Source: Candidatus Aenigmatarchaeota archaeon (GTDB lineage: Archaea; EX4484-52). Taken from it: DNA of 58,917 nt. The translations under genes were made by a program, and so were the position numbers. The stretch lies in assembly GCA_023137195.1 (NCBI GenBank), contig JAGLPV010000012.1, positions 1 to 58,917 of the forward strand, given 5' to 3'. The notes under the pieces were generated by a model. That model was not told where the DNA came from. It saw only the letters and a list, made by a program, of their open reading frames with translations, and ran no database searches. This document shows, one piece after another, positions 2,779 to 35,700 of this stretch (within the stretch, counting starts at the first letter, position 1; each line of letters opens with the position of its first letter).

Positions 2779-2800
2779 GTTAATATTATGAGTGAGTAAA

Positions 2801-2808
2801 TTATATAA
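2801..2808. promoter_or_regulatory. Palindromic TATA box shared by divergent purB and giant gene 1
   Basis: TTATATAA lies exactly 22 nt from purB ATG (2778, minus) and 22 nt from ATG 2831 (plus). Confidence 0.7.
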
Positions 2809-2830
2809 ATTAATTAGTGTATTATATTGT

Positions 2831-14800: not shown

Positions 14801-17800
14801 ACAGAGTTACAGAGAAAACATCTGAAAAATATTTTATCTGAATACAATGAAGGTCTGAAAGCGAATGAGAAAAGGGCAAATATCAGAGTCAACAAATATG
14901 TTTTGTCGCTTAGAGAAAATATCGTGGAATCCGGAAGACTGCGTTCTTATGGCTATAATCTGGATGCACTGAAAAAAACAGAATTAACTACAGGTGCATC
15001 CGATATTGCGCAGACGAATATAAGGCAGGAAGAGATAAACAAAAGAATCAATGAAATAAATGGGGTGCTCCAAAATAAAAATATTGATTTGGAGGAGGAT
15101 AAAGAAGATTACATTTCAAATCCGGAAAAAATAATTGATGAACTCGGGAGGAATACAAAAGATGCTGAATTAATAAATCATATTACAGAAATTCTGAATC
15201 AAATAAAAGACATCAATGAAAAGGAAATAAAGCCGCTAAAAAATAAAAAATCAGGAGATATCTGTGTTTTTGTGAGCGATGATTTTTTCAAGTCAATAAA
15301 TTTTGGAACATATTTTGATATATGTACTTCTCTTGATGATGGAGGGTACAGAGAGTCTGCGCTGGTATATGCTGTGGAAGAAAACAAGCAAGTGCTATAT
15401 CTGACATACAATAAAACTATTGTTTCGATGAGAGTGTTGCTTTTGACAAGAGAATCTATTTTAAGCACTATTTCTTATAATAGAGGGATGAATTATAATT
15501 TTGAAAATATCTGGGCGGACTTTTTTTTGAAACTATGTCGAAACAGCAGGAAACCCGTTTGTTTTAGTTCAAGGGAAGGACGGTCTTTTAAACACGCTTT
15601 AGAGAATAAAAGTGAAAATATTATTAAATCAAAGAGCAGTACTCATGTAATTGACAGAGTAATATTTGATAATTTTTATGATGATTACTCTCAAGGGACG
15701 ATAAATATTGATGGTTATTCACTACATAAAACAAAAACATACGATCATGATTTTATTCTGATGAAGGGAACTCCTAAAAAACAAAAAAAGCCATTGTTTG
15801 GAAAATTGTCCAGCATGTGGAAACCAGAGGATTCTGATAAATACGAAGTTCAGGAAAAGGAAAAGGAAAATGTTGCAAAAACTTCTGATGCTCTTTTGGA
15901 AGATGAATATAAAGATATAGAAGGAGCAGTAAATTCAACTTTAGATAGTTCTACTGGTAGAAAATTGAAAACACATAAAGGCGGGTCACGTTTCGGAAGT
16001 ATATTCAGCACTAAAAAACAGTCCATCCGTGAAAAATACAATAAAATTACCGAAGAACTGAAACATAAAATGTACTATTATGGAGGCGATGAAGAAGATA
16101 TTCTTTTATTGACCAAAGCACTTGAAGACACAAATCCACAGGTACGTCCAAACGCCGCTAAGGCATTAGGAGAGGCAGCACAAAGTCTGTCGGAAGACAA
16201 AAAAGAAATACTCTCAACAATCAATCCTTTGATTGAATTATTGGTGTCTAAAGATGCCTTCTTGGGTACAAGTGCAGGTTATGCAATTGAAAAAATAGGC
16301 GTACCTACAATGCCATTCCTGGTTGATGAACTGCGGAAAAAGAACAAAGACATGTGCTTAAAAGTGGCATGGCTGATTGGAAAAATATCAGAAGATATTC
16401 CTGACAAATACACAGATAGATTAATCCCTACAATTGAGCCTTTAATCAAATTGCTGGACAACAAACATTCTGACATGCGAGGGAGAGCGGCATGGACTCT
16501 TGGAAAGATAGCAGAAGTTCTCCCGGAAAATAAAGCAAGTTGTATGAGACCAGCGGTTGAACCGTTGAAAAGACTGCTCGAAAGTAAAACAGAATACGAG
16601 CAGGATAATGCTAAGGAGGCACTTTTGAAAATATCAGGAAGGCTTCGTGGTAAAGTGTCTCACGAAGGGCAGAGTATGAAAGGCGTATCGAATAAATCGG
16701 AATCAGAAGATAATAGTGTTGAGGAAGAGGATAATGCAAAGTTGCTTGGTGCTTTTGTAGATAGTGATTCCTGGAAAAAGAGAACATTTGTTAATGAAGT
16801 GATGAAGACACCGGAAGGAGAGGATTTTGAAAAAAATGATATAAATTCTGGTTTTAGTGCATCTGTACATGGAGTAAAAAAAGGAGATCAAGAGATTGTA
16901 GTGAAAGAGATTGAGTTTGGAAGTAAAAAGCCCAATATATTTCAAAAGATAAAAAAAAAATGGAAAGAGCCTTCAAAAATAGCGAATCTTGTACTAGAAA
17001 GAGTCAATGATGAAGTAAAGGGGAAATACAAGCCCATACGGAGGAATTCTTCAAAAGAGGAATATTTAATACAAATAAAAGTCCATAATATCCTTCCTCA
17101 TAATACGCCCGGTGCCTGGGATTATGATAAAAAAAATAAAAAAATCCTGATGGATGTAATTCCAGGGAGGGTGCTTAGAAAGCTATATTCTGAACTGGAA
17201 AATAAACCGGAACTTGTTGCTGATCTTGGAAAGATTGTTTCGACGTTGAATAATAATAATATTTTTCATGGAGATTTGAATCAGAATAATGTAATGCTGG
17301 ATGATAATAATGTCTGGCAATTGATTGATTTTGGAAGCACAAAAGAAATAATTGAAAATACGAAAGATAAGGCAGAATACCAGAAAAATGACATTCATAA
17401 AGTTACAAGATATTTTTCAAAAAAATTAAAATCAGTTTTTTTTGAATCTTATGTCAAAGAGATGAATTTTAGAAATATAGTAGCTTCTTTTGAAAATGAA
17501 GAAATAGATTCTTCAGATGCCGTAGTGTGGCTTGATTTTTTTAAATATCTGGATAAAAATATGTGGACTTCCCCGGAAGAAGTTAAAATACATTTGCGGA
17601 AAATTATAGGGGTATTTGAAAAAGAAGCAGAGACTGAGAAACAAAAGTCATTCTTAGGCATACCATATAAATCAAGAAAAGCTATGGTCGGATTGCCTGT
17701 CAAAAAGTCTGATGCCAACTATGATGAACTCATGCGTAAATTAAAAGCAGGGGAAACTGATGGCTATGAAGTAAATGATCTGCCTGCATTAAGTAGAATA

Positions 17801-18811: not shown

Positions 18812-21800
18812 GCAAGATAAATCCTGAAGAAATAGACGATAAGTTGACTAAACTAAAGAATATGCTGGTTGTTGTTGAGAGTGAGGTAGATAAAACGTCA
18901 ATGATTCTGGAAAAAGAGTTATCGAATAAAGACAGAAAAGAGCTAAAGAAGCATCTTGATAAATTAACGAATGGTTATGCTAAGGCAAAATCGATGATAG
19001 AAATATGTGAAGGTGCAAAGGAACTTTTGGATAAAAGGAATAAAGCAGAGGATAGATTGAAGTGGGCAGGAGATATTGAGAGAGGGAATCTTAAAATAGA
19101 AATTAGTAGAATAAATGAGGAACTGGAGGAATTAAAGAAATCTGTTCCCAAGAGGATGGGTTTATTTGGACAACTTAAAACTATTCTTGAAAAGAGACAT
19201 GAAAGACCACCAAAAGGAATGGTTGGATTTTTGGGAAGGAAAAAAACAGATAAAACCAGACTTTCTGAGGAATTAAGAAACGAGTTTGGTTTAGAGCTCT
19301 ACAAAATTAAGCTTTCAAATAGACAGATAGAAGAATTGAGCGAAAAGTTAAGCAAATATGGCTCTCTAAATGAAATAAATTTATACGAAGCAGGAATATG
19401 TCCTGAATGTGGAGGTAAGAAGGTTACCCAAAGGTATGGTGAGTTTGTTTGCAATATGTGCAATCCAGAAATAGAAGAGCTAAAGCAACGCCCTGCTTTT
19501 ATTGGTGAAGTGGAGGAAAGACCGGAATTTGGTGTCCTGGGAAAAAAGAAAGATTACCTCTCAAAAGATGAGATATACAAATTATGTGAAGAGGCAGGAA
19601 AAAATTCTCCGGTTGCCGCCAAGTTAGAGTTTATTGCCACTCTTATTAAAGGAGGCAAATCTTTGGATGCTATGGTTAGGGAAACTAAAAAGAATGCTCG
19701 TTTTGGAGGACCTATATCTCAAAATATGTCTCCTTGGAAAAAAGGAGCAATAAGTAGATTTTATGTAGAAGAATTCAAAAAATTATACAAACTAACGAAT
19801 GAAGAAGAAAGATCTAAAGATGAGTTAAATACTGCGCTCAGAAAGATAAAAGAGAAATGTGAATTTTGGCAGGAAGAAAACATCGAAGAAAAATACCTGC
19901 GTAGAAATCCAAAGAAAGTAAATGGATACAACCGTCTGAAAGAATATGCAAAGAAGAAGAACCTTTCTCTTTTTCCTGAACAAATAATTAGTATATTAGA
20001 ACAACCAGGTAATAGTTCTAGTCGAGGAGGTAAAGGGATAAAAAGCATAATTTTTATTGCAAAGTTAAGAGACAAAGTAAAAGATAGATTTGGGGTAGAC
20101 ATAAATAGCGAAGTAGGATATGATATTGCGTTAAAAAAAAATCATATCTTATGGAAAAATATATCTGATGAATGGCTGGCTAAAAATACACTGCACCATA
20201 AATCGATTATAAGAAATGTTAAACAATTTTCTAAAGCATCTCCACTAATATTTGGAAGGGAAATGTCTGAATCTAAAATAAAGGCAGTAATACAGAAATT
20301 ACAAGAAAATAATGTTAAGTTAAGTTGTAATAATGTTGTGGAATTGGTAGAGAATGCAGAAAGAATATGTGATTTAGTTAAAGAAGGCAATACGGTTCAA
20401 GGGGCGACATCTTCTGTAATAAAAAGACTTTCTGAAAATCAGGTTAAAACTAGTGGAAAAAAGTTATCTGAAGAACACAATAATAAAATAAGAGCATTAA
20501 GAAAATATGTATTTGGAGTCTTAAATAAATCCAGTTTATTGAGAGCAAAAATTGATGAAAGATTGCATTCGGAGATAAAAGCTTATGCAGAAGAGGGGAA
20601 ACAGACATTGACGGATGGAGAGGTCATACGTATCTCCAAACAGCATCCAAATGATTATGAAACTATTCTTGATTTACTTCCAAAAATAGAAGCGTATGCA
20701 AAAAAAAAAGATCTTGTATCTCATAGTTACACATTCAAAATAGTCAATTGTGCTCCAGGAACATGCAAAGACATAGTATTTTCTGCTTCTGAGTTAAAGA
20801 AGAGATTAAGAGACAAATATGGAATAAAAACAAGTGATGATAATTGCATGGGATATGCTCTGGGAAATAGAAACTGGAATGATGAACCTGAGAAAGATTT
20901 AATTAAAAATATAAGGGGTTGTACGTTGGAAAATGTGGATGAGATAAAACTCTCAGAAAATTCTGAATTAATATTTGGGAAATATATAGACCCTCATAAA
21001 ATAGAAGAAGTTATCAACAATTTGATGAATGGCGGCAGAATTTTCTCATTAAATAGTATTGGACGCGTGATTATACGTTCTGACTTTGGACATACAATAA
21101 AAGAGAGAGAGATTGATATAACCAACATGGATGATTTAGAAAAAGAAAATGATAAATCAAATATTCGAGTGACGGGTAAAAGAGTAGGAAAAAATGATAC
21201 AGATGTTATTGAATTTATTTCTGAGAATCCTGACAAAAAACAAGTTTATTTGGATGTAAAAAAATATGCCGAGCAAAAAGAGGTAGACTTGGATGTTAAT
21301 GATATTATATATATAACCAAATATCATTATAATAAATATAAAAGGATAATTGATGCGTTTTTAGATATACAAATGTATGCTGAAGAAAATGAGTTTGATT
21401 TATCTAAAAATGAAATTATGCAGTTGATTCGTGAGTATCTTAGTAGTTATAGGACGGTAATAGATTATGCTTCAAACTTAAGGTACATACAAGTGAAAAA
21501 ATATGGACTTCAGTACGATGATTCTGAATATATTAATGTGGCCATGCGAAGAAGACAAAAATCCAATATAGATGAAATAATTGAAAAATCTCAGTATGGG
21601 AAAGCAAATGTGATAAATCCTGAAAAATTCTCAAAATTTTCTGAACAAGTATTAGGAAAATATTTAGAATCAAGAGAGATAGAGAGAGTTATTAATGAAT
21701 TATTTGAGCTAAGTAAAAAGCCGACTTTGAGGAATATTCGGGCGTTGTTACATCGAAAGAAACTGAGGCGAGAGTTTAGGATAGATAAGGATATTGATTA

Positions 21801-24800
21801 TTGTATAAAGGTGCAGTTGGATGAAACTGAAAAAACAAAAGGAGTGGCAACTGAGCCAATTAGAAAATTATGTTATTCTAATGAGCCCATAAGAAATAAG
21901 AATTTTTTAATAGGTATAAAACGGATATATGGCGGAAATATTCCTGAATCAGTAATCGAGTCCATTAAAGAATTATTTCGTTCTGGGAAAAGCAATAATG
22001 TGCCTGTGACGTACAAAGATGTCAGGAAAATACTAAAGAGGTATGCTGGTGATGTTGCCGGGTCAGAGGAAGGTGGAGTTTCCGGTGGCGAAGAGGAAGT
22101 TCCTTCAAAGAAAGCTGGTTTGCCAGGAAAAAAAGGCTTTGTGGGAGGAGGAATTACAGATGTATTTGAAGAAGGGGAAGATTCAAATAATAATGATGAA
22201 GATATACAAAAAATACAAAATGCAGTTAATAAAAAAGGCACATCGAGAAAAGGAGAATTAAACACAGGTGTTCTCACAAGACAGCATTTATTTAAAAGTT
22301 TTAAGAGGTTCATGAATCCAAATGGCATTGATTACAAACCAGATGAAAAGAGCACAAAATCATCCGGGTTTTTGAAAAGAATAGAAAATAAAATAAAATC
22401 CTTTTCAAAGAAACCAGACGGAATTGAGAAAAATATAAAAGCAGGTTTTGAGTTAATTAATGGAGAATATGTTCCAGAGAAAAATCTGTTGACTACCACC
22501 AGAAAAGCATCTGCCTTTTTCCGGTTGGGTGGAATTGCGTCCAGCAATAAAGAAGGTGAAAAAAAACTTTCTGATTATCTGAAGAGAGAATTAAATCTAA
22601 ATCTGGACGACCTCAATCTTCAATACTGGCATAAAAAAGCATTATCTACTGACCTGAAACTATATGGAAAACTCAAGCCGATTTCATTGTTTGAAGTCGG
22701 AATATGTCCTTATTGCTATAATGGAGTTATAAATGAAGAATTAGGAGAATATAGATGTAACAAATGCAATAGGACTGATAAAATAGAAGAATCAATAATA
22801 CGCCATATTCCTGAAGCAAAGGGTAAAGCATGGGAAATTGTGCTCTCTAATAAAACGATATATGCTCTATGCAAACGTGCAGAAAAATCAAAAGATGCAA
22901 CGATTGCCGCTAAATTAGGGATGATAACGAACCATATTAAGAATGGACAGAGTATTGGTAATGCTATTGGGTTAGCAACCACTATTCTAAACAACCATAA
23001 TTGTAATAAGTATGAAAACAGTAATACAGAAAGAAGAGAACGTGAGATAAGGATGTTTTGTAATAGAGCGTTCGAAGAAATATATCGGGCAGGAAGAGTA
23101 CATGATTTTGGTTCAAAAGGAGAAAATATATTTACTCGGAAACACGAAGGGTCTTTCTTTCCATACACAGGAAAGCGAAAAAAAGAATATGAAGACATGA
23201 CAGGAGCAGTTGACTCAAATAACTCTTATTTGAAAGAACAGGAAAATGCAAGAACAAGTAATATAGCAATTGGAGAGGAAGGGGGCAAAGTGCTTGAAGA
23301 TACATCGAAAAATAGTAAAGACTTACTTAGCAAGATAAGTGAAGAACGGGCAAGAGAACTCTGGGTCAATGCAGACTCAAGAATAATGAGACTCATTCCA
23401 AAAGAAGAAAGTCGATATTGGGGATCTATGAATCTAAAAGAGAGAGAGGACATTTATGATGCAATAAAAAGGGGCGAGAAACCATACTATGCAGATACAT
23501 ATCCTCAAAAAATTATAGGGAATAAAAAAGTTAAGATTCCTCGTAATATCGGTGGTTTATTGGATGGTTTTTTGAAAAAGGGTTCAAAAATAACAGAATT
23601 GTCCCATCTAATAAAGAAAGGAGAAATACCATTATATACTGAGAAAGAATTGGGAGAATATGATATTAAACAAGGGAAGCCATCGTTTGGAGGCAAAGGA
23701 TGTGTACAACGTATTTATGCCAAAGATGAAGAAGGAAATATTCATAAGATTGCAGTAAAGACACCGTGGAAGAGTAAACAAATCAATAAGAGCGAATACG
23801 ATAATATCCGCATTTTCAGAAAATTTCTCCCGTCCAATGTTCCAATAGTTTACGATGACTTGACAATGGAACTAATCGAGGGAAGAACATTAGAGAACGT
23901 TCCAGAAAAAGAGCTGAAAAATCAGAGGTTCTTTGCTGAACTGGGCAGAATCATTGCAGTTATGCACAATCATAATTTTATTCACAGGGATTTAGTTCGT
24001 GAAAATATAATATTAGATGAAAAAGGAGTGTGGAAATTAATTGATTTTGGAGAGAGCATCCATTTAGAAGAGGAAATAGAAAATATAGATTCCAAATTAT
24101 TAATTTATCAAAAAAATGAATTTGACGATAATGGATCGAAACTTGTTTTCTGTAATTGTTATAGCGAGAGCATTAACAGCAATTTCTACCAAAACTATTT
24201 GGTTCATAGGAACCTGATAGAAATTGCTCCGTATGTAATATTGCAGAAAAAAGACAACAAAACCGTAGATGCTTTTTTCGAGTTTGTATTATTTATAGTA
24301 GAAAAGATAACAAACCAATCCGAACAAGTAGATGATTATCTTTCAAATTTCATAGACAAAACAAGAAATGTTATATCCAGATATTCCGAGAAGGAAATAC
24401 TGGAAAGAACAAGAAAAGATAGGCTGAAAATAAAACTTGCAAAATTTATAAAAAAAATAGAACAAAACCCGAATATTCATTTACATAAAACAGAAAAAAT
24501 AAAAGAAGAAACACCCAATACAACAGAACTTACATCCCTTGAAAATAAGTATAATGACTTAGTAAAAAGTAAGGTATACAACGAGCATGAAGAAAAATTC
24601 AAGCACAATGGGCTTGAAAAAATAAGAGAGAAAATTAACAACCTGAGAACTCCAGAGCATAGAGAAATAGAGGTAGAAGAAGCACAAAAACAGGGGCGTT
24701 CATTGAATAATTTCCTCCAGATGGGTTCAAAAGGAAAAACAGAGAGACAAGAAGAAGATAAATCAAGAATATACCTTAAAGAAACATCAGTGTCCAAAGT

Positions 24801-24879
24801 AGTAGAGAATGACAGACATGTCGTAACTGCCGCAAAAGAGGCAATTAAAAAAGCAGAAAATACAATAAACCAAATATGA
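18808..24879 (+). CDS. Giant multidomain protein 2 (2023 aa): coiled-coil N-terminus, two Zn-ribbon modules, helical tandem repeats, C-terminal protein-kinase-like domain
   Basis: ATGA overlap with gene 1; CPECGG...CNMC (19399) and CPYC...CNKC (22705); FGGKGCV...IAVK...HRDLVRENIIL...LIDFGES (23680-24060). Confidence 0.9.
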   Translation: MSKINPEEIDDKLTKLKNMLVVVESEVDKTSMILEKELSNKDRKELKKHLDKLTNGYAKAKSMIEICEGAKELLDKRNKAEDRLKWAGDIERGNLKIEISRINEELEELKKSVPKRMGLFGQLKTILEKRHERPPKGMVGFLGRKKTDKTRLSEELRNEFGLELYKIKLSNRQIEELSEKLSKYGSLNEINLYEAGICPECGGKKVTQRYGEFVCNMCNPEIEELKQRPAFIGEVEERPEFGVLGKKKDYLSKDEIYKLCEEAGKNSPVAAKLEFIATLIKGGKSLDAMVRETKKNARFGGPISQNMSPWKKGAISRFYVEEFKKLYKLTNEEERSKDELNTALRKIKEKCEFWQEENIEEKYLRRNPKKVNGYNRLKEYAKKKNLSLFPEQIISILEQPGNSSSRGGKGIKSIIFIAKLRDKVKDRFGVDINSEVGYDIALKKNHILWKNISDEWLAKNTLHHKSIIRNVKQFSKASPLIFGREMSESKIKAVIQKLQENNVKLSCNNVVELVENAERICDLVKEGNTVQGATSSVIKRLSENQVKTSGKKLSEEHNNKIRALRKYVFGVLNKSSLLRAKIDERLHSEIKAYAEEGKQTLTDGEVIRISKQHPNDYETILDLLPKIEAYAKKKDLVSHSYTFKIVNCAPGTCKDIVFSASELKKRLRDKYGIKTSDDNCMGYALGNRNWNDEPEKDLIKNIRGCTLENVDEIKLSENSELIFGKYIDPHKIEEVINNLMNGGRIFSLNSIGRVIIRSDFGHTIKEREIDITNMDDLEKENDKSNIRVTGKRVGKNDTDVIEFISENPDKKQVYLDVKKYAEQKEVDLDVNDIIYITKYHYNKYKRIIDAFLDIQMYAEENEFDLSKNEIMQLIREYLSSYRTVIDYASNLRYIQVKKYGLQYDDSEYINVAMRRRQKSNIDEIIEKSQYGKANVINPEKFSKFSEQVLGKYLESREIERVINELFELSKKPTLRNIRALLHRKKLRREFRIDKDIDYCIKVQLDETEKTKGVATEPIRKLCYSNEPIRNKNFLIGIKRIYGGNIPESVIESIKELFRSGKSNNVPVTYKDVRKILKRYAGDVAGSEEGGVSGGEEEVPSKKAGLPGKKGFVGGGITDVFEEGEDSNNNDEDIQKIQNAVNKKGTSRKGELNTGVLTRQHLFKSFKRFMNPNGIDYKPDEKSTKSSGFLKRIENKIKSFSKKPDGIEKNIKAGFELINGEYVPEKNLLTTTRKASAFFRLGGIASSNKEGEKKLSDYLKRELNLNLDDLNLQYWHKKALSTDLKLYGKLKPISLFEVGICPYCYNGVINEELGEYRCNKCNRTDKIEESIIRHIPEAKGKAWEIVLSNKTIYALCKRAEKSKDATIAAKLGMITNHIKNGQSIGNAIGLATTILNNHNCNKYENSNTERREREIRMFCNRAFEEIYRAGRVHDFGSKGENIFTRKHEGSFFPYTGKRKKEYEDMTGAVDSNNSYLKEQENARTSNIAIGEEGGKVLEDTSKNSKDLLSKISEERARELWVNADSRIMRLIPKEESRYWGSMNLKEREDIYDAIKRGEKPYYADTYPQKIIGNKKVKIPRNIGGLLDGFLKKGSKITELSHLIKKGEIPLYTEKELGEYDIKQGKPSFGGKGCVQRIYAKDEEGNIHKIAVKTPWKSKQINKSEYDNIRIFRKFLPSNVPIVYDDLTMELIEGRTLENVPEKELKNQRFFAELGRIIAVMHNHNFIHRDLVRENIILDEKGVWKLIDFGESIHLEEEIENIDSKLLIYQKNEFDDNGSKLVFCNCYSESINSNFYQNYLVHRNLIEIAPYVILQKKDNKTVDAFFEFVLFIVEKITNQSEQVDDYLSNFIDKTRNVISRYSEKEILERTRKDRLKIKLAKFIKKIEQNPNIHLHKTEKIKEETPNTTELTSLENKYNDLVKSKVYNEHEEKFKHNGLEKIREKINNLRTPEHREIEVEEAQKQGRSLNNFLQMGSKGKTERQEEDKSRIYLKETSVSKVVENDRHVVTAAKEAIKKAENTINQI
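19930..22040 (+). repeat. 3-4 diverged ~160-aa helical repeats in giant protein 2
   Basis: Recurring (L/I/V)KxYA...L(R)D/KKxG(V/I/L)...S-x-(L/V)(I/L)(F)G(R/K)...I(E/K)xVIxxL units starting near 19930, 20570, 21245 and partially 21760. Confidence 0.65.
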
Positions 24880-27800
24880 AAAGCACAACCGTAGATGAAA
24901 TAAATTGGCTATTAATTAAATTAGAAAAAGAATTCTCTAAGGTCAATGAAAATATAAGGAAAACAGAAGATGTACAAGTAGAAGTGCAAAATAAAAAGGA
25001 AATGAAAAAGCTTGACGATTCGCTTAAGGAATTAAAAGAGACAAAGCTAAAATTAGAAAAGACAATGCATAAATGCTGGAAGGCAGGAGAATTACTGGAG
25101 GAGAGAGATAAACTTAAAGATGAACTGGAGAAATTTCCGAAGGAAAGCCCGGGATTTAGTGAAAAGAAGGAAGAACTTAAACAAAAACAGCATGAAATTG
25201 ATGAATTTAAGGGCAAGGAGGGGTGGCATTTTTCCAGGTTGCCCAGCATATTTGGAGAGCTAGGTCATAAGCTGTCCGGGAAGCCCGGAAAAAAATACAG
25301 CGAACCTGTAAAAATAGTTCCTGAAAACATCACTCAACTTATCAAACAACTTGAAGGTAGAGATACTACTAAGGCTGGCGAAGCGGCACTCTTAATTGAG
25401 AAAATGGCAAAGAGGCTTCCTGGTGAGATCAAATACAAAATACTTCCTGCCCTCAAGCCATTGGGGGAATTTGTCAGGAAAGGAAAAGATGAAAAGGCAC
25501 TTTTGAATGTGGCTTATGCACTGGAGCGTATATCCAGCATGCCTTCTAATGAAAAATATACAGATGAATTTATTCCTATAATAGAGCCATTATCCTGTTC
25601 GCTTAAACCAAAAGGAAACCCGAAAATTTGCAAACGGATTATTTCTGCGCTTGTGCACATATCTTGTAAGCTCCGGGGAGATAAGCAGGAAAGAATGATT
25701 GACGTGCTTCCAGTACTAGTGAGATTAATAAGACATGGAACAGAAGAAGAACGTAGTAGTGCCCGTGAATTGTTTGAAATAATAATCCTCTATGTCCCTC
25801 TTGAAAAGGCAGACGTGCTTGTTGGTTCAGTTAAGGAATTAAATAATCTGTTGAGAGTTGAAAATCAAGATGTGCGTTCTGTTGCTGCTACTTTAGCAAT
25901 TCATACAATAAAAAGAATTCCTTTAGACAATAGGGATATTCTGTCTGTGATAAAGAATTTTGATGTGTCAAGAGAAGATAAAAATAAGGCTGTTCGTAAT
26001 TATGCTCGTCTTCTGTATAATATGGATTCCAATGCATTATATTGGCAGGGTATCGAAACCAGGAAATCGGAAAGTCCTAAAAATATGGATGAAGCTATCC
26101 GGATGCTTGAAAAAGACAGTGAAACATGTAATTATGCATGTAGTTGGATATGGAGGGAAGAACAAAAAAAATCTGCTGAAACAGAACACTTACTTATTCC
26201 AGTGGTACATCCATTGGTGGGTGTGCTTCATACAAAAAAAGAACCATATATCATTAATGTTGTTGCCAGAATACTGCATAAGATAATAACAAAACTCCCC
26301 GACGATAGAAAAGAAATATTTATCAAGGAATATGTTTTCCTGGGAGATTTGCTTGAAAGCCATAAGATGCCAAAAAATAGGAGGGCTGCCGCGGGTTTAA
26401 TCAAAGATATTATAGAATATATTCCCGACAGATATTTTGAGAAGCTTTCCTTAAAAGGTGGCTTGTTTGGGATGACAAGTGATGGGGATATAGAGGTTCG
26501 TCTGTATGCCAAAGAAGCGTGGAGGATAAGAGACAATAGACTACCCGGACTAAAATTGGAAAAACATACAGAAAAGAGCGGTGCAAATGATAAAGAGGAA
26601 TATAGTTTGGGTTCTGTTGAAGATAAATTGGAGAAGCAGGTCATAAAGAAAATTAGTGTAAGAGTCAGGGATAAATTAAAAGATAAAGATACTAAAGGGT
26701 ATACAAAAGAGGATGTTGAACAACTAATTAAAATAGCCTGTCTGGATAAAGAGGACACCTCTATTCGCATACGTGCCCTTAGTGTTATTGGATTAACAGC
26801 AGATTCAAGTACTGCTATTGAAACAGCATTAAATCTATTTAATGACAAAAATGAAGATGTGCGCAATAATGCCATTGCTTCAATAAAATCAATGGTACTA
26901 AATATTGATGTCTTTGGAGATGATGAAACGCGGGCAACGGTGCATGCGATTGCTCCATTGTGCGTGGTTATTAAAGGTGAAAATAAAAAGGCGCGTTACA
27001 ATGCAATTCGCTCTTTTTCATCCATAGTGGAAAAACTGCCGGAAGATAAAAAAGCAGAGTTGATTCCTTCAATTGATTTATTTTTGGGGAGATTGAACCG
27101 AAAAAAAGAGCCAGATAATAATATGCGTGCAAATTGCGCGGGTGTGCTTGTACAATTAGCATCGAGATTGCCCGAGTATGAAAAAGCCACTGCCGAAACG
27201 GACAGGCTTATTGAAATAATAAAAGAAAAGAGGGAATTTATAGATGTGTATCGAGATGTTTTACATGTACTTTCAGTGCTTTCTTTTCAGCTTCCGTCAA
27301 ATAATATGCATAAATACATTCCTATAACAGAGGAACTGTTTGGCATTATATACAGGAATAATGTGTATATAAAAGAGAGCGATAATGAAAAAAAGAGAAT
27401 TGCTTCAACTAATCATGCCGTTGTTATATTATGTCATATGATAGAAAAACTGCCGGAAGACAAAAAAGAGAAATTTTTTAGTCTTATTGATGGTCGTCTG
27501 TCAATGCTTCTTGAAAAAGGAAATGTGTCAGGACTGCGCAAAATTGCTGCTGAATTAATTGAATTGATGGCAAAACATCTTTCCGGCAAATACAGGGAAA
27601 AATATCCTTTGTCGGTTGAAGAATTGATTAAATTAACAAAAGATGAGGATGTAGAGGTTGCTAACCGTGCTCAGATTGTACGAAGCTTTCTGGCTGGTGG
27701 TGGAAACAAGGGTTTGCTCGATGATGTGCGTGGAGAAGAAGGTAAAAAGACAGGAAGGAAAAAACCGGGGAAAAAAGGATTTGTGGGAAGACCTCGTTTA

Positions 27801-30479
27801 CCTCAACCAGGAGACATACCTTCTTTGTTTAAAGACTTTGCCGGATTCATCGGGGATAGAACGACCCCTGATGAACTGGATGATGTAGAGCAAATTCCAG
27901 AGCATAATTCAATTAAAGATTCTTTTGGTAAAGTGATTGGTAAAATAAAAGGAAGACATAAAGACCCGAAAAATGTGGAATACTGGGATGAAATGGAGGG
28001 GGGATTAGAAAAAAATCCCGGATTATTGAACAATTTGTACAATCGCCTTCCTGATGGGTTGAAGAAGAAAAGTAAGGGATTTGCCAGATTCCTACCTGGA
28101 GGAAAGGAGGGAAACGAAGAGGATGCTTCGCCGGAAGACAGGAGTGAAGAACCACTGGTTCATAATGTTCCTGTGGAGGATAGTGAAGGTAATACTACAT
28201 ACAAGAAAGTTCTTTCAAGGAGGGCCATAGATAATCTCCGCGAGCGTGCAAAAGGAGACCTACTGATTGCTGCCAAATTGGATATTATAAAAGGAGGAAT
28301 TATTAATCGTGGTTTAGACATTGAAGGGGCGATTAAAATAGTGACAGGAAATAGATTAAACGAAAAACATATAAACATTTCTCCTCCTGTGGTACGAAGA
28401 AGAATAAACGCCTTTCGTAATATAGCTTTAAGAGAACTTTTAGAATCTGGTGTCGATGGGTCAAGGGGTAGGACTAGAGAAAATCAAAAACAAGGACAGG
28501 GGGAGTTAAACAATGTTCCGGATGTTTTGAATGAACAATATAGTAAAGGACTTGCCTTACCACATATTCTATGGAAAAAGAAGAAGAATAAACCCATACG
28601 TACGTACGGAAGCATAACCGAACCAATAGAGAAAAAGCAAATAGAATATAATGAAACAGACTTGGATTCTGTAGAAGACAGGATGGAAAAGCAAGACACA
28701 GAAGTATATGAAGAAATGCAGGATAGACGCAAAAGAGATAAGGAATTTTTGCCCGATGTAAAAGAATTAGGAATATCAAGAAAAGGATTAATTTCAAAAG
28801 AAAAAAAGCAAATAGAAACTATGCCTGACGAATCAAGACAGATCACAGATAAGTTCTTTGGTAGTGAGAAAGAAAGAAAAAAGGATGTGTCTGATGCGGT
28901 TTTTGATTCAGATTATTTAGATGACATAGAAACGGAGTATGTAAAGGAAACTAATAAAAAAGAGGATAAAAGACTAGTCCAGTTGAGAGAAGAGAAAGTA
29001 AAGTTGGATGGTGGTGGACCGTTGACTCGTTGGTACAACAACCATGTTCCTCGTATTTTGAAGAAAAAAAGAATTAGGATGGTGGGATTTATAGAGAAGA
29101 AAGAAAGAAACAATGAGTCTATCCCAGAGGGGTTGGATAGATTAGAACAAAATAAGGCATCCGAATTATCGATTGACGAATACAAAAAAAGATACAAAAA
29201 GGGTTTTCTGGATATAGAACACCAATATTTGAATCATCCTACCGGGAAAAAAACATGCATTGCCCTGAGCAATTTAAGGGATGTTTTAATAGAGGAACTG
29301 TATAAATACACCATATACTTGGCAAGGAAAGAAAATCCTAGTTTCCCTTCAAAACTGCCTATGGCAATTATTGCATTTGGGGGAGATGGCAGAAGAGACA
29401 TATGTCCTTTTTCTGATGTAGATATTGTCTTTTTGTATTTTTCTAAAGAAAAGAACAAATACTACAAGGAATGCAGAGCAGTAGAGAATGTTATGGTTAA
29501 ATATTTAGGCACTATCGGATACGGGCTAGGAAAATGTGATTCTCAGTTAGATTATGTTTCAGGTACGAATAATTTTAAAGAAATAAAAGAACGCATATAT
29601 GATTCTTCCGTAAAAACTGCGCTTGTCGAAACAAGATATCTTTGTGGAGATAAAACTTTAGGGGATGATTTTGAGGAATTTAAAAATAATAATATATATC
29701 TAAATTATAGTGATGCATATTATCATTTGCTTAATTTACTCCATTATATAAAAGACGATTCTTTTGAGAAGAATAATATAATTCATCTAAAAGGAGGGGT
29801 TGGATTAAGAGCAATACATCACTTGTGCTGGTGCTTGGCAGGATTATACAATATCAGGCAAATAGGAGTAAATAAAATCCTGAAGCATGCCGCAGAAAAA
29901 AATATTATCACAAATAGCGAATGCAATTTTTTGATTAATTTTTATGAATACCTTTTGATAATAAGAAATGATCTCCATTATTCTCACATGCGTGAACATA
30001 ACAAGATTAATAACTCCGATGCGGAAAAGAAGAGTCAATACTATTCTAAACAATATTTCCGGCATATTGATTATCTAAAATCTCATTTCGGGCAGGTCAA
30101 GAAGGTTTTAACCACAATATATAAAAGACTGCACGAAAATATAAAGAGCGAAAAAGATACGAAAAGACCGCTTGTAAAAAATACTGGTGTGAAACTGATT
30201 GAAGAGCCAATAGAACTTGACCAAGGCAAACTTGCCCTGCATGAAAAACATGGAATGGCATTGTATAAAAATCAGGAAAAAATAGACAGCAATGAAAAGC
30301 ACATAGATGAATTGGATCTTTTTGAAAGACAGGCAAAAGAGACTTACAGAGGGGAAAATACGAGTCCTGAAGCATTGTTTTCCGGAACAAAAAAGAGAAG
30401 GGAAGAACTTGAAAAGGAGCTTTTGAAAGACTGCATAGAGCTTATTGAGGAAATAGAGAGACAGACGGTGAAAAATTAG
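24876..30479 (+). CDS. Giant multidomain protein 3 (1867 aa): coiled-coil N-terminus, long HEAT/ARM-like solenoid, C-terminal GlnD-like nucleotidyltransferase
   Basis: ATGA overlap with gene 2; HEAT-like ENQDVRSVAA, DKNEDVRNNA, DEDVEVANRA; AIIAFGGDGRRDICPFSDVDIVFL, ETRYLCGD, LKGGVGLRAIH, YEYLLIIRNDLH. Confidence 0.9.
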   Translation: MKSTTVDEINWLLIKLEKEFSKVNENIRKTEDVQVEVQNKKEMKKLDDSLKELKETKLKLEKTMHKCWKAGELLEERDKLKDELEKFPKESPGFSEKKEELKQKQHEIDEFKGKEGWHFSRLPSIFGELGHKLSGKPGKKYSEPVKIVPENITQLIKQLEGRDTTKAGEAALLIEKMAKRLPGEIKYKILPALKPLGEFVRKGKDEKALLNVAYALERISSMPSNEKYTDEFIPIIEPLSCSLKPKGNPKICKRIISALVHISCKLRGDKQERMIDVLPVLVRLIRHGTEEERSSARELFEIIILYVPLEKADVLVGSVKELNNLLRVENQDVRSVAATLAIHTIKRIPLDNRDILSVIKNFDVSREDKNKAVRNYARLLYNMDSNALYWQGIETRKSESPKNMDEAIRMLEKDSETCNYACSWIWREEQKKSAETEHLLIPVVHPLVGVLHTKKEPYIINVVARILHKIITKLPDDRKEIFIKEYVFLGDLLESHKMPKNRRAAAGLIKDIIEYIPDRYFEKLSLKGGLFGMTSDGDIEVRLYAKEAWRIRDNRLPGLKLEKHTEKSGANDKEEYSLGSVEDKLEKQVIKKISVRVRDKLKDKDTKGYTKEDVEQLIKIACLDKEDTSIRIRALSVIGLTADSSTAIETALNLFNDKNEDVRNNAIASIKSMVLNIDVFGDDETRATVHAIAPLCVVIKGENKKARYNAIRSFSSIVEKLPEDKKAELIPSIDLFLGRLNRKKEPDNNMRANCAGVLVQLASRLPEYEKATAETDRLIEIIKEKREFIDVYRDVLHVLSVLSFQLPSNNMHKYIPITEELFGIIYRNNVYIKESDNEKKRIASTNHAVVILCHMIEKLPEDKKEKFFSLIDGRLSMLLEKGNVSGLRKIAAELIELMAKHLSGKYREKYPLSVEELIKLTKDEDVEVANRAQIVRSFLAGGGNKGLLDDVRGEEGKKTGRKKPGKKGFVGRPRLPQPGDIPSLFKDFAGFIGDRTTPDELDDVEQIPEHNSIKDSFGKVIGKIKGRHKDPKNVEYWDEMEGGLEKNPGLLNNLYNRLPDGLKKKSKGFARFLPGGKEGNEEDASPEDRSEEPLVHNVPVEDSEGNTTYKKVLSRRAIDNLRERAKGDLLIAAKLDIIKGGIINRGLDIEGAIKIVTGNRLNEKHINISPPVVRRRINAFRNIALRELLESGVDGSRGRTRENQKQGQGELNNVPDVLNEQYSKGLALPHILWKKKKNKPIRTYGSITEPIEKKQIEYNETDLDSVEDRMEKQDTEVYEEMQDRRKRDKEFLPDVKELGISRKGLISKEKKQIETMPDESRQITDKFFGSEKERKKDVSDAVFDSDYLDDIETEYVKETNKKEDKRLVQLREEKVKLDGGGPLTRWYNNHVPRILKKKRIRMVGFIEKKERNNESIPEGLDRLEQNKASELSIDEYKKRYKKGFLDIEHQYLNHPTGKKTCIALSNLRDVLIEELYKYTIYLARKENPSFPSKLPMAIIAFGGDGRRDICPFSDVDIVFLYFSKEKNKYYKECRAVENVMVKYLGTIGYGLGKCDSQLDYVSGTNNFKEIKERIYDSSVKTALVETRYLCGDKTLGDDFEEFKNNNIYLNYSDAYYHLLNLLHYIKDDSFEKNNIIHLKGGVGLRAIHHLCWCLAGLYNIRQIGVNKILKHAAEKNIITNSECNFLINFYEYLLIIRNDLHYSHMREHNKINNSDAEKKSQYYSKQYFRHIDYLKSHFGQVKKVLTTIYKRLHENIKSEKDTKRPLVKNTGVKLIEEPIELDQGKLALHEKHGMALYKNQEKIDSNEKHIDELDLFERQAKETYRGENTSPEALFSGTKKRREELEKELLKDCIELIEEIERQTVKN

Positions 30480-30487
30480 TATGAAAT

Positions 30488-32488
30488 ATGATAAAGGCAA
30501 AAAATGCGTTGAATAATAATATGAGGGAAGGAGAAAAAATAAGAGAACTGTCGAACTTGAGAGATATATTATTGGACTTGAGAGATAAAGGACATGTTGA
30601 TAAAGCAGGAAGAGTAGTATTGGAAAATATTGAAGCCAGACTGAAAAGACCAAACGTAGAAATAAGCGCAGATGAAATACACGGATTTTACGAGCAGGTT
30701 CTCCGGCTTAAAAAGGAGAAAGGAAGTGTAACGAAGAATGAGTTGGTAGAGGAAGCAAAGGGATATGCAGGTGGAATGGAGATTAGATCGAAGGGAGACA
30801 ATAACTTTGGAATTGAGATGAAGGCAAGGCAATTAAAAGACTGGACGAAGTTTGATTGGAAGGACCCAGGAAATTTATTTGAGAATATTATCAAACGTTT
30901 TAAAAATAGTAAAAAAATTGAAATTGATAAAGAAGAACTTGGGTATTTAGATGGTAATACAGCTAATATTAATTCAATAAATGAAGAATTAGGTGAAGTA
31001 GTGCCAGAGTATACGAATTTAAAATCAAAATGGATAAAGTTTTTTGGTGAAGACAACGAAGCGAGATTGAATCAATTAAAGAAAGAAAGGCAATATGGTT
31101 TTTCAAAGGAAGATTTAGATTATTATTATGGTGTTTTACAGAACAAGGAAACTGGTCCATTGAACCCAGAACAGCAAAGAAAAAGGAGAGAATACAACAA
31201 CAGGATGAAGGACAATTTAGGTGATAAAGATTACGAGGAATACCGTACATTGGTGCGTGATAAAAATGCTCTTTTACCAAAAAATAAGGTTCATGATTAT
31301 CACTACCTAGGTGGAAGAATCGGTGAGTTGTTACGACGGAGAGAAGAACAATTAACTGGGCAAAGAGCCATAACATCAAAGATAATCAAAAAACAATCCA
31401 TTCTTGAAGAATATAAGAAGCAATACATAAAGGGTTTTTTGAATGTAGAATATGATTTTTTAAAACATAATACCGGATTCGAGACGTGCTTTGCTATGAG
31501 TCAGTTGAGGGATATTCTTATTACTGAATTGTATACTCTTGCAGTCTTAAACATGCAGAAGACAGATAAATCCTTTCCAGCTAATCCGCCTATGGCAATC
31601 CTTGTTTTTGGCGGATGCGGGAGAAGAGAGGTATCTCCATTTTCAGATGTCGATATTTTCTTTCTTTTCTTCAAAAAAGGAGAAGTTCCGGAGGAATGCG
31701 AACTTGTAAGGGATATGGTCTGCAATTATATGCGGCTTATTGGTCATGGTATGGAGGCTGTCGATGATTTAGCAATAAGGGGGCTACAGGGTGTTGAGGA
31801 TCAGAGCGACTTAATTAAAAGAATGAAATTATTGGGGAAGGATGTTTCTGAAAAAAGCAAATACAATGGATGCAGATATATTTGTGGAGATAAAAATATA
31901 TGGAATAGCTACAATAAATTACAGGATGAATATCTCAGCATGACTTTGGAGGATGGAAAAAAAACATTAGAAAATTTGGATTCCTATTTGCGACAAAATG
32001 CATTTACCGATATTAAACACGAGGAAGAATGGAAATATAATATAAAAAAGAGTTCCGAGGGGCTAAGAACAATACAGGTACTTTGTTGGGCACTAAAAGG
32101 GATTTGTGACATTAGAAAAAGATCTGTGGCGGAGATATTAGATGAAGCAATGGATAAGAATGCAATTTCTCATGAAGAGAGAGGCATATTAATAGAATGC
32201 TATGATTTTAATCTAAAATTGAGGAATGAGATACATTATCTTTATATGAAAGAGCATGAAATGCTTTTGAGCGAGGATTTGAAAAAAAGAAGTGAGGGTT
32301 TTGGAAAGCAGTACAAGTTGTTGTTGGGACAATTGTCTTCTCATTTTGACAGGGAGAGAAAAGTTGTTGGTGTGATTGCTGAGAGGATTAGAGGAGGGGC
32401 AGGAGTGGGCGAGACTGATGAAGAATTGAAGAAAAAAATAAGAGAAAAAACAGAAAAATGCATAGGTTATATAAAAAGTATGGTCTAA
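30488..32488 (+). CDS. Cluster protein 4 (666 aa): helical N-terminal half plus a second GlnD-like nucleotidyltransferase
   Basis: AILVFGGCGRREVSPFSDVDIFFL, CRYICGD, YNIKKSSEGLRTIQVLCW, YDFNLKLRNEIHY; paralogous to 29170-30140. Confidence 0.88.
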   Translation: MIKAKNALNNNMREGEKIRELSNLRDILLDLRDKGHVDKAGRVVLENIEARLKRPNVEISADEIHGFYEQVLRLKKEKGSVTKNELVEEAKGYAGGMEIRSKGDNNFGIEMKARQLKDWTKFDWKDPGNLFENIIKRFKNSKKIEIDKEELGYLDGNTANINSINEELGEVVPEYTNLKSKWIKFFGEDNEARLNQLKKERQYGFSKEDLDYYYGVLQNKETGPLNPEQQRKRREYNNRMKDNLGDKDYEEYRTLVRDKNALLPKNKVHDYHYLGGRIGELLRRREEQLTGQRAITSKIIKKQSILEEYKKQYIKGFLNVEYDFLKHNTGFETCFAMSQLRDILITELYTLAVLNMQKTDKSFPANPPMAILVFGGCGRREVSPFSDVDIFFLFFKKGEVPEECELVRDMVCNYMRLIGHGMEAVDDLAIRGLQGVEDQSDLIKRMKLLGKDVSEKSKYNGCRYICGDKNIWNSYNKLQDEYLSMTLEDGKKTLENLDSYLRQNAFTDIKHEEEWKYNIKKSSEGLRTIQVLCWALKGICDIRKRSVAEILDEAMDKNAISHEERGILIECYDFNLKLRNEIHYLYMKEHEMLLSEDLKKRSEGFGKQYKLLLGQLSSHFDRERKVVGVIAERIRGGAGVGETDEELKKKIREKTEKCIGYIKSMV

Positions 32489-32749: not shown

Positions 32750-35700
32750 ATGAGTCAAGAAAAAAAGGACACACCAAAAGAACGTCAAAGAAAAGAGGAT
32801 ATACTAAAAGGATTCGAAAAATTAGCCAGCGAATTGGGGGGATTAAATAAAGAAGTAAAGCATGGCAAAACAATTCCAGATTCAGGAATTAAAGTTTTAG
32901 ATGGGATTAAAAAAGAATTAGAAGAGTCACTACACTCAGATTATGTTGTGGATGTGGCACAGGTCCATAATTTTTGCACTGTAGTTGAAAAAATAAAAAG
33001 CTCTCAGAAAATATACGAGGATGTTTTAAAGGAGGAAGGGATAACTCCGGCGAGGAAAAGATCATTCTGGGATAATCTTGAAAGAGGTGCTTTAAGAGGC
33101 GAAAAAATAGCCAAAAAGCCATGGAAGAACAAGACGAATTTAGACCTGCTGGAAGAGTCTATAGAAAAAAAAGAAGATTATCTGGCAAAAATCATAAGAC
33201 CTCAACAGAAGATTCCTACGGAGAGACAGAAGCATACTTTCTTTGATGCCCTGGAAACAGGACTAAGGAGAAAATTTCAAAAAATTAAGAAATCAGATAT
33301 TCCTCCAGGGGATAAATCAGAAGTTTCTCATTGGGATAAATTAGAAAGGAATCATGAAAGACATGGGGGAGAAAAGCCAACTGAAAAGTCGGTTGCCATG
33401 AAAGGAGGCAAATACTCGCCTGAAGAATTAAAGCGGTGGGAAGATATTACCTCATCGGATGATAAAAAGAGTTGGGGTGCCTTGATGGAGGATTTGCACA
33501 AGCAGGGTCATATAGCTGTTTTTGGAGGCGATGCAAACATGCCTGAAAAAGACGTGGAGGAGAATGCAAAGCATAAGGCTGTGAAAATATTAGATAAAGA
33601 AAAAAATATTGATGATAGCGGAATTACAGGAGATGCATTCAATACACTCAACAGTATTGTTCACAGAAAAGAGGTGTCCGGGGATACAATCAGTCAGGCA
33701 GGTTACAGGAAATTAAAATACAAATACAAAAACATAGAGAACGATTGCATCCAGTTTGATTTTGCTTATGCAGATAACGGTGGATTTGCAGGAAAGGTCA
33801 TTGCATATAAGCCTTATTTCAAGTATTTTGGCTACTCAATTCATAATTTTGTAGGGGATAGAGGGAAGAGATTTTTGGAAGAATGTACAGCCATTAGAAA
33901 AAAACACCAAGAATTTTCTGGTGATTTAGAAACAGAATTGCCAATGATTAAAGAATGGATTGATTCAGGGAAGAAAATCCATTCTAAAACAATACCTGTG
34001 CCACTTAAAATAAGTCCAATATCAGGCGGTTTCAGGAGACTTATGTTCATGTATTCTGTAGATATAAATGGAGAAAAGCATTGGCCTAATGTTAAATTCC
34101 CTGGAGATATTCCTATCAAAAGGGCATTACACATAGAAGATTTTCAAACTACTATTGACCTGATGCAAAAGTACAATGAAAAGATGTTTCCTCCTTTAAT
34201 TTATCTAGAATTACCTAAGGGAAAATACACATTATATGATGAGCAAAAAAAATATGATAAATATATCAATTTTAATCCAGGCATGTTATTCTTTTTTAGT
34301 CCGGAAGGTAGGAGATTAATAGATCTTTCTGTGAGTAGAGATCAAAAAGATAGGTTCATTAATAGAGAGTATATTGAGAAAGTGGCATCTCGAACAGGGC
34401 TTTCTTTTGAAACATTGACTGAAAGAATTGTGAAGGAACCATTTAGATTTTTAGCACATTGTCATATAAATAGATATTTTCTTGGCTCGTGGAGAGGAAC
34501 GGATTCACATTACGGTAATTTTTTTTTATCTGAAAAAGGAGAAATTTTCGAGGTATCTGATATAGGTCCTACTAGATATGCCGGAAATATAAGGATTAGA
34601 ATACAGGATGATATTAAAGATCTTCTTGAAGATGCGGATTCATTAGAAGATGTTCTGGAATATTTAAACATTCCGGGTGAAGAGATAGAAAAATATTCTC
34701 ATATGGCATTAAATGCATATTTAAGAACATTAGAAGAAGAAAATGCAAAAGATTTACGATCTTTGTTTGATGATGAAGAATCACTTCTCATTAATGAGAA
34801 GGATAGAAACTTACTGAAGAAGGAAAAAAAGGAGAATGAAAGAGAATTTAAAAAAGGCATTTGTTCTTTTTTAGAGAAAAATTTGGGCTCACTGAATCTT
34901 AATGGTGGTGTAAAGAAAAAGTGGTATAATCACTACGTGGGTGAAATAAAAAAAACAGATGAGCCATGGGATTTAGATAAAATAGAAGCTGAAATTCAGG
35001 AGAGGTTTCAAAATAATAAATTTTCTGAAGAAGAATTCAAACAACGCATAGTTAGAGATGAAAGAGAAGCAGGCAGAAGTGGCGAAGGAAAAGAAGGTGG
35101 TCCTAAGTTCAAAGAGCCAAAAGAACTTGTCAAAAAGATGCCTTGGGAGATAGAAGAGAAAAAGCATTTCATTAAAGTGTTTGTTCCGAAGTTTTCAATA
35201 AAATTTAAGGAAAAGAAAAAAGAAGTCGGGTTGGGCCAAAAAGCAGAATTTGTTTTTGTGGTAGAGGAATTAAGCAATAAAAAGCAGAAGGTTGAATTAA
35301 AGTCAAAATCAGCAGATGTGCGTGTTGAGACAAAACTAAAAAGGCTGGGAGAAGAACAAGAATACGGAGCCGTATATTGTGAACTTAGAGAAAAAGAAAA
35401 AGCAGAATTTGTCTTGGCAGCGTATTGCGAGGAAGAGATAATTGCAGAACTTCTTATTGGAGGAAAAAACGAGGATGGTTTTACAGCGTACGACACAGCA
35501 TGGCTTAAAATCGGAAGAGAAAAGATATCTTATGAAGGGAAGAAGCTATTGCCTGAAAAAGAAAAACCAGAGATAACACGCGAGGAATTAGAGAAAATCG
35601 AAGAGGGCATGGAAAAGGAAGGAGAATTGCCTCCTGGGATAACAACTGAAGAATTAGAGAAAATCGGGGTTTTGAAGAAAAAGAAGTTGCCTGAAGAGAG

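Follow-up and report, generated by a model that had tools for sequence, protein, structure and literature searches.

GlnD-like nucleotidyltransferase modules in two closely spaced archaeal genes, one of them fused to a HEAT-repeat scaffold

Results and Discussion

Two GlnD-like modules in a set of five large genes

The stretch of DNA analysed here (the window: 58,917 nucleotides (nt), contig JAGLPV010000012.1 of assembly GCA_023137195.1, a Candidatus Aenigmatarchaeota archaeon, GTDB lineage Archaea; EX4484-52) carries five large genes on the + strand between nt 2792 and 37081, which we call g1 to g5. Two of them, g3 and g4, each contain a module that resembles the nucleotidyltransferase part of GlnD, the bacterial P-II uridylyltransferase, and these two modules are the subject of this report (Table 1). 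The genes are closely coupled: g1 and g2, and likewise g2 and g3, overlap by 4 nt, and the g3 stop is followed after 8 nt by the g4 start, with GGTGA ahead of it. An AT-rich gap of 261 nt separates g4 from g5. An earlier note, made from the DNA alone, had placed two GlnD-like modules at nt 29170..32390, which agrees with the module borders in Table 1, and both of the peptides that it quoted are in place.

Table 1. Genes and features of the g1-g5 region (window coordinates; aa, amino acids)
Feature	Position (nt)	Strand	Description
g1	2792..18811	+	5339 aa; HEAT repeats, kinase-like domain near C-terminus; HGD..N at nt 17264-17302, DFG at nt 17321-17341
g2	18808..24879	+	2023 aa; Ser/Thr protein-kinase domain; HRD..N at nt 23980-24018, DFG at nt 24037-24057
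g3	24876..30479	+	1867 aa; N-terminal HEAT part, long middle without assigned domain, GlnD-like module, 114-aa tail
g3 transferase module	29169..30134	+	residues 1432-1753; helical hairpin, Pol-beta-type core, GlnD_UR_UTase helical domain
g3 catalytic motif GGDGRRDICPFSDVD	29379..29423	+	residues 1502-1516; fits G-X11-D-X-D
g3 C-terminal tail	30135..30476	+	kept in P0010 and fragment P0012; Cys-containing amphipathic helix at end
g4	30488..32488	+	666 aa; 300 N-terminal residues without assigned domain, then GlnD-like module
g4 transferase module	31400..32395	+	residues 305-636; 30-residue tail after
g4 catalytic motif GGCGRREVSPFSDVD	31610..31654	+	residues 375-389; fits G-X11-D-X-D
g5	32750..37081	+	1443 aa; no known family; a contig C35 paralog joins the core domain to HEAT and g2-like parts

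The host is archaeal, as had been proposed: subunits A and B of topoisomerase VI and an archaeal elongation factor 1-alpha (EF-1alpha) are encoded in the window. The source assembly has a size of 1.42 Mb, a G+C content of 35% and a completeness of 85%. The stretch is not a one-off assembly product. Contigs of four runs from one cold-seep study (two of which may be the source sample itself) matched it with 0 other letters in long pieces, and two of these contigs spanned the g3/g4 junction. The runs containing the stretch carry the label cold seep metagenome.

Family assignment of the modules

The g3 and g4 modules aligned with 37% identity over 334 columns (BLASTP, E 2e-70), which marks them as paralogs. 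Both sit near the C-termini of their proteins, in keeping with the earlier description, and no similarity between g3 and g4 was detectable outside the modules. The helical-subdomain motifs were likewise found in both, in the forms K..G.GLR[AT]....CW and Y..L..RN.[LI]HY.

We then compared the modules with profile models, as the earlier note had suggested. The NCBIfam GlnD model NF003467 matched the g3 module with E 6.5e-24 (model positions 42-371 of 940) and the g4 module with E 4.7e-17 (positions 38-312 of 940), and only the N-terminal third of the GlnD models was covered. The Pfam family GlnD_UR_UTase (PF08335, cut-off 21 bits) was matched by g4 with 42.9 bits; for g3, the whole-protein scan gave 20.3 bits and the genome scan 24.3 bits. 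GlnE models were far weaker than GlnD models on both modules (E 1.9e-3 to 1.2e-6), and Pfam GlnE (PF03710) reached 18.6 and 16.4 bits, below its cut-off of 24, with one module per protein. These comparisons identify the modules as homologs of the GlnD uridylyltransferase module, consisting of the nucleotidyltransferase core and the GlnD_UR_UTase helical domain, with a likeness far beyond chance. The equivalog cut-off of NF003467 (959 bits) was not reached, at 83.7 and 61 bits, nor was that of TIGR01693 (519.4 bits), at 59.2 and 57.7 bits.

GlnD is thus the closest sequence relative, with the same module of helical hairpin, Pol-beta-type core and PF08335 domain, and with the shared motifs GG.GR..P.SD.D, RY..G, GLR, W and LRN..H. 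The arrangement differs: the module is N-terminal in GlnD and C-terminal in g3 and g4, that of g3 is fused to HEAT repeats, and only GlnD has HD and ACT domains. A Pfam scan of g3 and g4 detected neither HD nor ACT families even at E <= 1, which bears out the earlier claim that these domains are absent, and the tails of 114 and 30 residues after the modules are too short to hold them. The three HD-domain matches of this genome sit on other contigs (C43, C22 and C26).

Proteins of the DUF294 type (PF03445 + PF10335) likewise combine a GlnD-like transferase with a helical domain and lack HD and ACT domains. They usually carry CBS and cyclic nucleotide monophosphate (cNMP)-binding domains, neither of which was found in g3 or g4 by the Pfam scan. 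The matches of the modules to their models were borderline and much weaker than those to the GlnD models: PF03445 gave 19 to 21.5 bits (cut-off 21), and PF10335 gave 16 bits on g3 (cut-off 22.5) and nothing on g4.

Other searches added little. The PDB sequence search with g4 returned nothing relevant (best E 0.4), and the Atlas search with g4 residues 1-300 gave no usable match, all structure rows having a template modelling (TM) score below 0.5. A relationship between the N-terminal 299 residues of g4 and g5 was considered and rejected (BLASTP, best E 1.1). PADLOC assigned no defence family to the modules or to g5.

Retention of the catalytic motif and predicted fold

To describe conservation, 66 GlnD-like alignment rows were used as the reference, in which 33 positions are at least 85% conserved. 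The three complete members of the family (g3, g4 and P0010, a homolog from the same genus) share only 37-47% identity with one another, and all three retain 18 of the 33 positions. Among the retained residues are all nine conserved positions of GG.GR..P.SD.D, R and G in RY..G, R and H in LRN..H, the invariant W and GLR. The motif G-X11-D-X-D is intact in both modules; PMC12409994 gives this pattern as the motif definition for GlnE and DrrA.

Next, the g4 module was modelled with AlphaFold2 from a 71-row alignment (the two window modules and 69 of the top matches P0010-P0080; P0065 and P0077 were left out). The model of 342 residues had a predicted local distance difference test (pLDDT) score of 87 and a predicted TM score (pTM) of 0.86. 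When it was compared with 48,161 PDB representative chains using VIA-align, the best matches were the GlnE N-terminal domain (1v4a; Z 27.9, 318 of 342 residues aligned), the GlnE C-terminal adenylylation domain (3k7d; Z 25.2, 304 residues) and the AMPylation domain of Legionella DrrA (6yx5; Z 22.6, 299 residues). They were followed by another match to part of DrrA (Z 12.7) and by HEPN domains at about 10 that covered the helical half only. Foldseek gave the same three chains at E 2.4e-9 to 3.9e-8 and all others at 1.5e-2 or weaker. The modules are therefore predicted to have the two-domain fold of the GlnE/GlnD/DrrA type, superposable over the whole module. No GlnD chain was among the fold matches; the best structural matches fell on GlnE and its relative DrrA, within the group that the earlier note had named as the test of its assignment.

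All three strong fold matches are protein-modifying (AMPylating) enzymes, and only a small number of folds with the capacity to write protein AMPylation or UMPylation are known. Small-molecule transferases matched far worse, with Z 7-8 against 22-28 for GlnE and DrrA; the more distant relatives in Foldseek included aminoglycoside nucleotidyltransferases and the HalB enzyme of Hailong. A complex prediction for the g3 module with its tail and the g4 module yielded no call either way (score 0.00).

DrrA (also called SidM; Legionella pneumophila; PDB 6yx5 and 3nku) shares both the fold (Z 22.6, Foldseek E 2.4e-9) and the G-X11-D-X-D motif with the g4 module, but just 14% of the residues in the structural alignment are identical. 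It is a secreted effector that also has guanine nucleotide exchange factor (GEF) and lipid-binding domains; in g1-g5, a secretion signal was not seen. PMC12409994 describes DrrA as an effector of several domains, one of which is a GlnE-like adenylyltransferase that stands alone as the writer; no eraser lies in the same chain, the eraser being a separate protein.

P-II in the phylum and glutamine synthetase

In PMC4285133, P-II is given as the only known GlnD substrate, and the transferase activity of GlnD is assigned to the N-terminal domain and the removing activity to the HD domain. A search for P-II (PF00543) found it in none of the 42 phylum-set genomes, among which are this one, with a completeness of 85%, and 10 that reach 90% or more, whereas the same search was positive in 13 of 14 well-known genomes. 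Thus, the canonical GlnD function is very unlikely in this lineage, and the modules probably tag something else. The earlier suggestion of P-II as a target does not hold for the cell's own P-II, and action on proteins of a partner organism is speculative. That g3 and g4 are true GlnD enzymes uridylylating the cell's P-II would suit GlnD being the best-matching sequence family, but we find it scarcely credible given the search result for P-II, the lack of HD and ACT domains and module scores (83.7 and 61 bits) far below the cut-off of 959.

A glutamine synthetase gene (442 aa) is present on another contig (C1:146671-147999; locus L008 1186-2514), and nothing links it to g3 or g4. The encoded protein contains EENLYKLT near its C-terminal part.

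Rarity and origin of the family

The HMMER scan of 1.84 billion representative proteins gave 318 matches at E <= 1e-3 and just three at E <= 1e-30, namely g4, g3 and P0010. The family has five members there: these three and the fragments P0011 (160 aa) and P0012 (926 aa, from a metagenome, with the N-terminus cut). It is very rare. P0010 is annotated as 'hypothetical protein' and aligns to g3 residues 1414-1864 (E 1.8e-96). In P0012, the transferase module is followed by about 640 residues that include a GHKL/histidine-kinase-type ATPase (HATPase_c, 7.4e-11) and a twice-occurring motif. The other matches listed are mostly of GlnD length (830-1000 residues). Among the 71 sequences scanned (alignment A1), PF08335 was present in all 71, HD in 40 and an ACT-type domain in 39.

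Within the phylum set, PF08335 was found in 2 of the 42 genomes and in one genus out of 13; of the 14 controls, only three bacteria had it and none of the four archaea did. A metagenome contig scan recovered the same-genus contig again and no further member, and a genome contig scan added only GlnD genes of the Verrucomicrobia type. We found no description of this family, or of a HEAT-fused archaeal GlnD-like transferase, in the titles and abstracts of the papers that literature searches listed.

A quick maximum-likelihood tree of 44 rows was built from the three complete family members and the first 345 residues of 39 matches among P0013-P0080 that are 830-960 aa long, with two domains of one Verrucomicrobiales GlnE as the outgroup; fragments and proteins of other lengths were left out. 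The family formed one clade (support of 100 in the Shimodaira-Hasegawa-like approximate likelihood-ratio test, SH-aLRT) with a long stem branch of 2.22, and a split from GlnE with a support of 99 placed it on the GlnD side. This position indicates that the duplication of the module was independent of the one in GlnE. Within the family, g3 grouped with P0010 (support 87) and g4 lay outside, which places the duplication before the split from the same-genus metagenome-assembled genome (MAG) that carries P0010. The simplest history would be that a bacterial GlnD transferase module entered this genus by one transfer and was duplicated afterwards.

The presence of two paralogous modules raises the comparison with GlnE, which gave the best fold matches over the whole g4 module and in which two homologous modules stand in series, as would those of g3 and then g4. 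According to PMC12409994, the two transferase domains of GlnE have opposite activities, with a regulatory region between them. By analogy, the g3 and g4 modules might be a writer/eraser pair in which removal proceeds by phosphorolysis, so that the modification would be reversible without an HD domain. Several observations are consistent with this arrangement. Read through from g3 to g4, the order is module, about 415 residues (the 114-aa tail and about 300 N-terminal residues of g4), then module, which is the order of GlnE; the duplication predates the split from the same-genus MAG; and the best match of g4 was the de-adenylylating N-domain of GlnE, although Z values of 27.9 and 25.2 for the two GlnE domains do not discriminate between them. 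However, both modules are nearer to GlnD than to GlnE in sequence, in which GlnE is a weak match, and they are split over two proteins. To our knowledge, the transferase domain of GlnD has no erasing role. Furthermore, a single module was found in the same-genus MAG (75% complete, with the contig cut upstream), and no sequence feature examined distinguishes a writer from an eraser. We therefore consider a writer/eraser pair possible but rather unlikely.

HEAT repeats and kinase domains around the modules

The module of g3 is attached to about 1400 residues of HEAT-type scaffold, with HEAT_2 detected at residues 620-673 (E 1.4e-6), and the HEAT regions of g3 resemble those of g1. This fusion is direct evidence of a link between module and scaffold. 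In g1, which has many HEAT repeats, Pfam detected HEAT_2 (1.8e-24), RIO1 (8.7e-8) and Pkinase (1.9e-5); in g2, Pkinase (3.3e-11) was accompanied by CDKL3 (2.7e-6). The kinase domains of g1 and g2 are paralogous, and their catalytic-loop and DFG motifs are intact. With PADLOC, g2 matched only generic Ser/Thr-kinase models, and the N-terminal part of g3 had one weak match to OloA (E 1.3e-4). Sequence searches with the N-terminal part of g3 and with g5 found nothing.

The earlier note had pictured the modules as unregulated, write-only enzymes. This description is not supported as it stands and is only one of several readings: the HEAT fusion and the coupling to kinase genes make control by partners at least as likely as no control, and a writer/eraser pair of the GlnE kind, discussed above, would not be write-only.

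Hydropathy analysis found no transmembrane segment or signal peptide in g1-g5, and charged residues (K+E+R+D) make up 33-37% of these proteins. These properties bear on a DrrA-like role, in which a DPANN symbiont would use the modules and the co-encoded kinases as effectors to modify proteins of its host. The place of DrrA among the three top fold matches, the small genome, and the confinement of the family to one genus, as is often the case with fast-evolving interaction genes, would be in line with such a role. On the other hand, g1-g4 have no signal peptide, transmembrane segment or known secretion or adhesion domain; the HEAT scaffolds and the high charge look cytoplasmic; and both a host and a transfer route for the modules are speculative. 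We know of no defined secretion routes in DPANN archaea. Taken together, host-directed effectors appear unlikely. A bolder version, in which the roughly 34-kb g1-g5 set would be a giant HEAT-scaffolded modification machine that combines Ser/Thr kinases with GlnD-derived tyrosine nucleotidylyltransferases and is used on host proteins, is a long shot. If true, it would be an archaeal counterpart of the effector AMPylation of the Legionella DrrA type, derived from a bacterial gene.

A paralogous giant-gene cluster without a transferase module was found on contig C35 of the same assembly (C35:5976-17788, - strand; locus L020). In its 3026-aa frame, a g2-like region and HEAT repeats are combined with a g5-like domain (46% identity to g5 residues 221-766). 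Next to this frame comes a kinase gene of 919 aa, and one kinase-like copy of this cluster has neither the catalytic Asp nor the DFG.

Proposed function and the evidence against it

We propose that the g3 and g4 modules are active protein nucleotidylyltransferases that act on a protein other than P-II, under the control of the scaffold and the kinases rather than of glutamine. We give this proposal an even chance of being correct. Most likely, the uridylyltransferase part of a bacterial glnD entered an ancestor of this DPANN genus, and the HD (removing) and ACT (glutamine-sensing) domains did not come with it. The module would then have been duplicated, and one copy would have been fused to a HEAT-repeat scaffold. 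Both copies now lie in a translationally coupled set of giant, presumably cytoplasmic HEAT-repeat proteins with Ser/Thr-kinase domains. By analogy with the known enzymes, the two Asp of the SDVD motif would hold Mg-bound nucleoside triphosphate, and a hydroxyl of the target protein would attack the alpha-phosphate to give a nucleoside-monophosphate-protein adduct. The attacked hydroxyl would probably be that of a tyrosine, as in P-II for GlnD and glutamine synthetase for GlnE; DrrA modifies a tyrosine of Rab1. The target would more likely be a component or client of the co-encoded HEAT/kinase assembly than P-II.

Several results weigh against this proposal. First, g3, g4 and P0010 all differ from GlnD at five of its strongly conserved positions, namely Asp in LWD (97% conserved in GlnD), Arg in HS.R (98%), Pro in EPN (98%) and, in GGLRD, Asp and the first Gly (100% each). 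The Glu of EPN is likewise altered in all three. The earlier note had already pointed to the change of GLRD to GLRA or GLRT, which is included here. Activity could thus be altered or lost. Second, the third metal-binding carboxylate was not located; there, model residues 124-134 have pLDDT values below 50. Third, nesting of the family inside GlnD had supports of just 93 and 86 on a very long branch of a quick tree, so that its position is not secure. Finally, the operon link to kinases was found in this genome only. In the same-genus MAG, the homolog, a kinase and a g5-like gene lie on separate contigs (C22, C9 and C10 of that MAG), and the homolog stands beside unrelated genes on a contig that stops just upstream, in an assembly that is 75% complete. 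A gene fragment upstream of this homolog was considered as a relative of g1-g5 and rejected (best E 0.10).

The altered positions raise the question of whether the modules have ceased to modify proteins and serve as dead scaffolding domains or as small-molecule or nucleic-acid transferases. The loss of five (near-)invariant GlnD positions, including the Asp of GGLRD, and the long stem branch would be compatible with such a change, as would the distant fold relatives named above, the aminoglycoside nucleotidyltransferases and HalB. The kinase-like copy on contig C35 without catalytic motifs indicates that dead enzymes do occur in this gene set. Against this, G-X11-D-X-D and 18 of the 33 GlnD positions have survived among members of only 37-47% identity, and the small-molecule transferases were far poorer fold matches than GlnE and DrrA. 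We consider this loss of protein modification improbable.

In our view, g3 and g4 belong to an orphan family of GlnD-derived transferases whose architecture is new and whose substrate is most probably new as well. In a lineage in which the search found no P-II, a GlnD module persists with its catalytic motif intact, joined to HEAT repeats and coupled to kinase genes. If the modules are active, their substrate must be new, and the range known for this modification in archaea would grow; the family would also be a clear case of a bacterial signalling module re-used after transfer. With about 330 residues and a soluble-looking character, the modules should be easy to assay in vitro. The breadth of these implications is limited by the confinement of the family to one uncultivated genus.

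Additional features of g1-g5 and of the assembly

Some further features of the gene set were recorded. The proteins g1-g4 end in a short amphipathic helix, with a conserved Cys in g3, g4, P0010 and P0012 (C[IK]..[IM]..[IM]); in the window, the regions with the Cys helix are nt 30135-30476 (g3) and 32396-32485 (g4). The N-termini of g1-g5 are helical and Leu/Ile-patterned. Judging from these patterns, the terminal helices of g1-g5 could be docking helices that join the proteins head to tail.

In g5, residues 583-606 (nt 34496-34567) and the corresponding segments of two relatives read GTD.HYGNFFLS..GE...VSD.G, with FAGK upstream, which resembles a kinase catalytic loop with a DFG-like triad. 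A kinase-like core in g5 was not confirmed: Pfam gave no match, the AlphaFold2 model had a pLDDT of 42.8, and hhalign against the g1 and g2 kinases gave E 0.47. The Atlas search with g5 gave a weak lead to 3-deoxy-D-manno-octulosonic acid (Kdo) kinases (score 0.92). The C-terminal part of the same-genus g5 homolog contains the Ig-like domains Big_1 and Big_3_5.

With its listed GTG start, g1 shares nt 2792-3006 with the 5' end of an adenylosuccinate-lyase gene on the opposite strand (1333..3006), and the true start of g1 is probably further downstream. No tRNA genes were found in the window. A gene with a Bro-N domain (E 1.2e-12), which is typical of viruses and mobile elements, lies at nt 54392-55219 among housekeeping genes. 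The assembly as a whole is rich in giant open frames: 39 frames have at least 900 aa, among them frames of 10,914, 5,679, 5,339, 3,026, 2,829 and 2,767 aa, and the loci with giant frames include C54:19759-52500 and C1:111119-128155.

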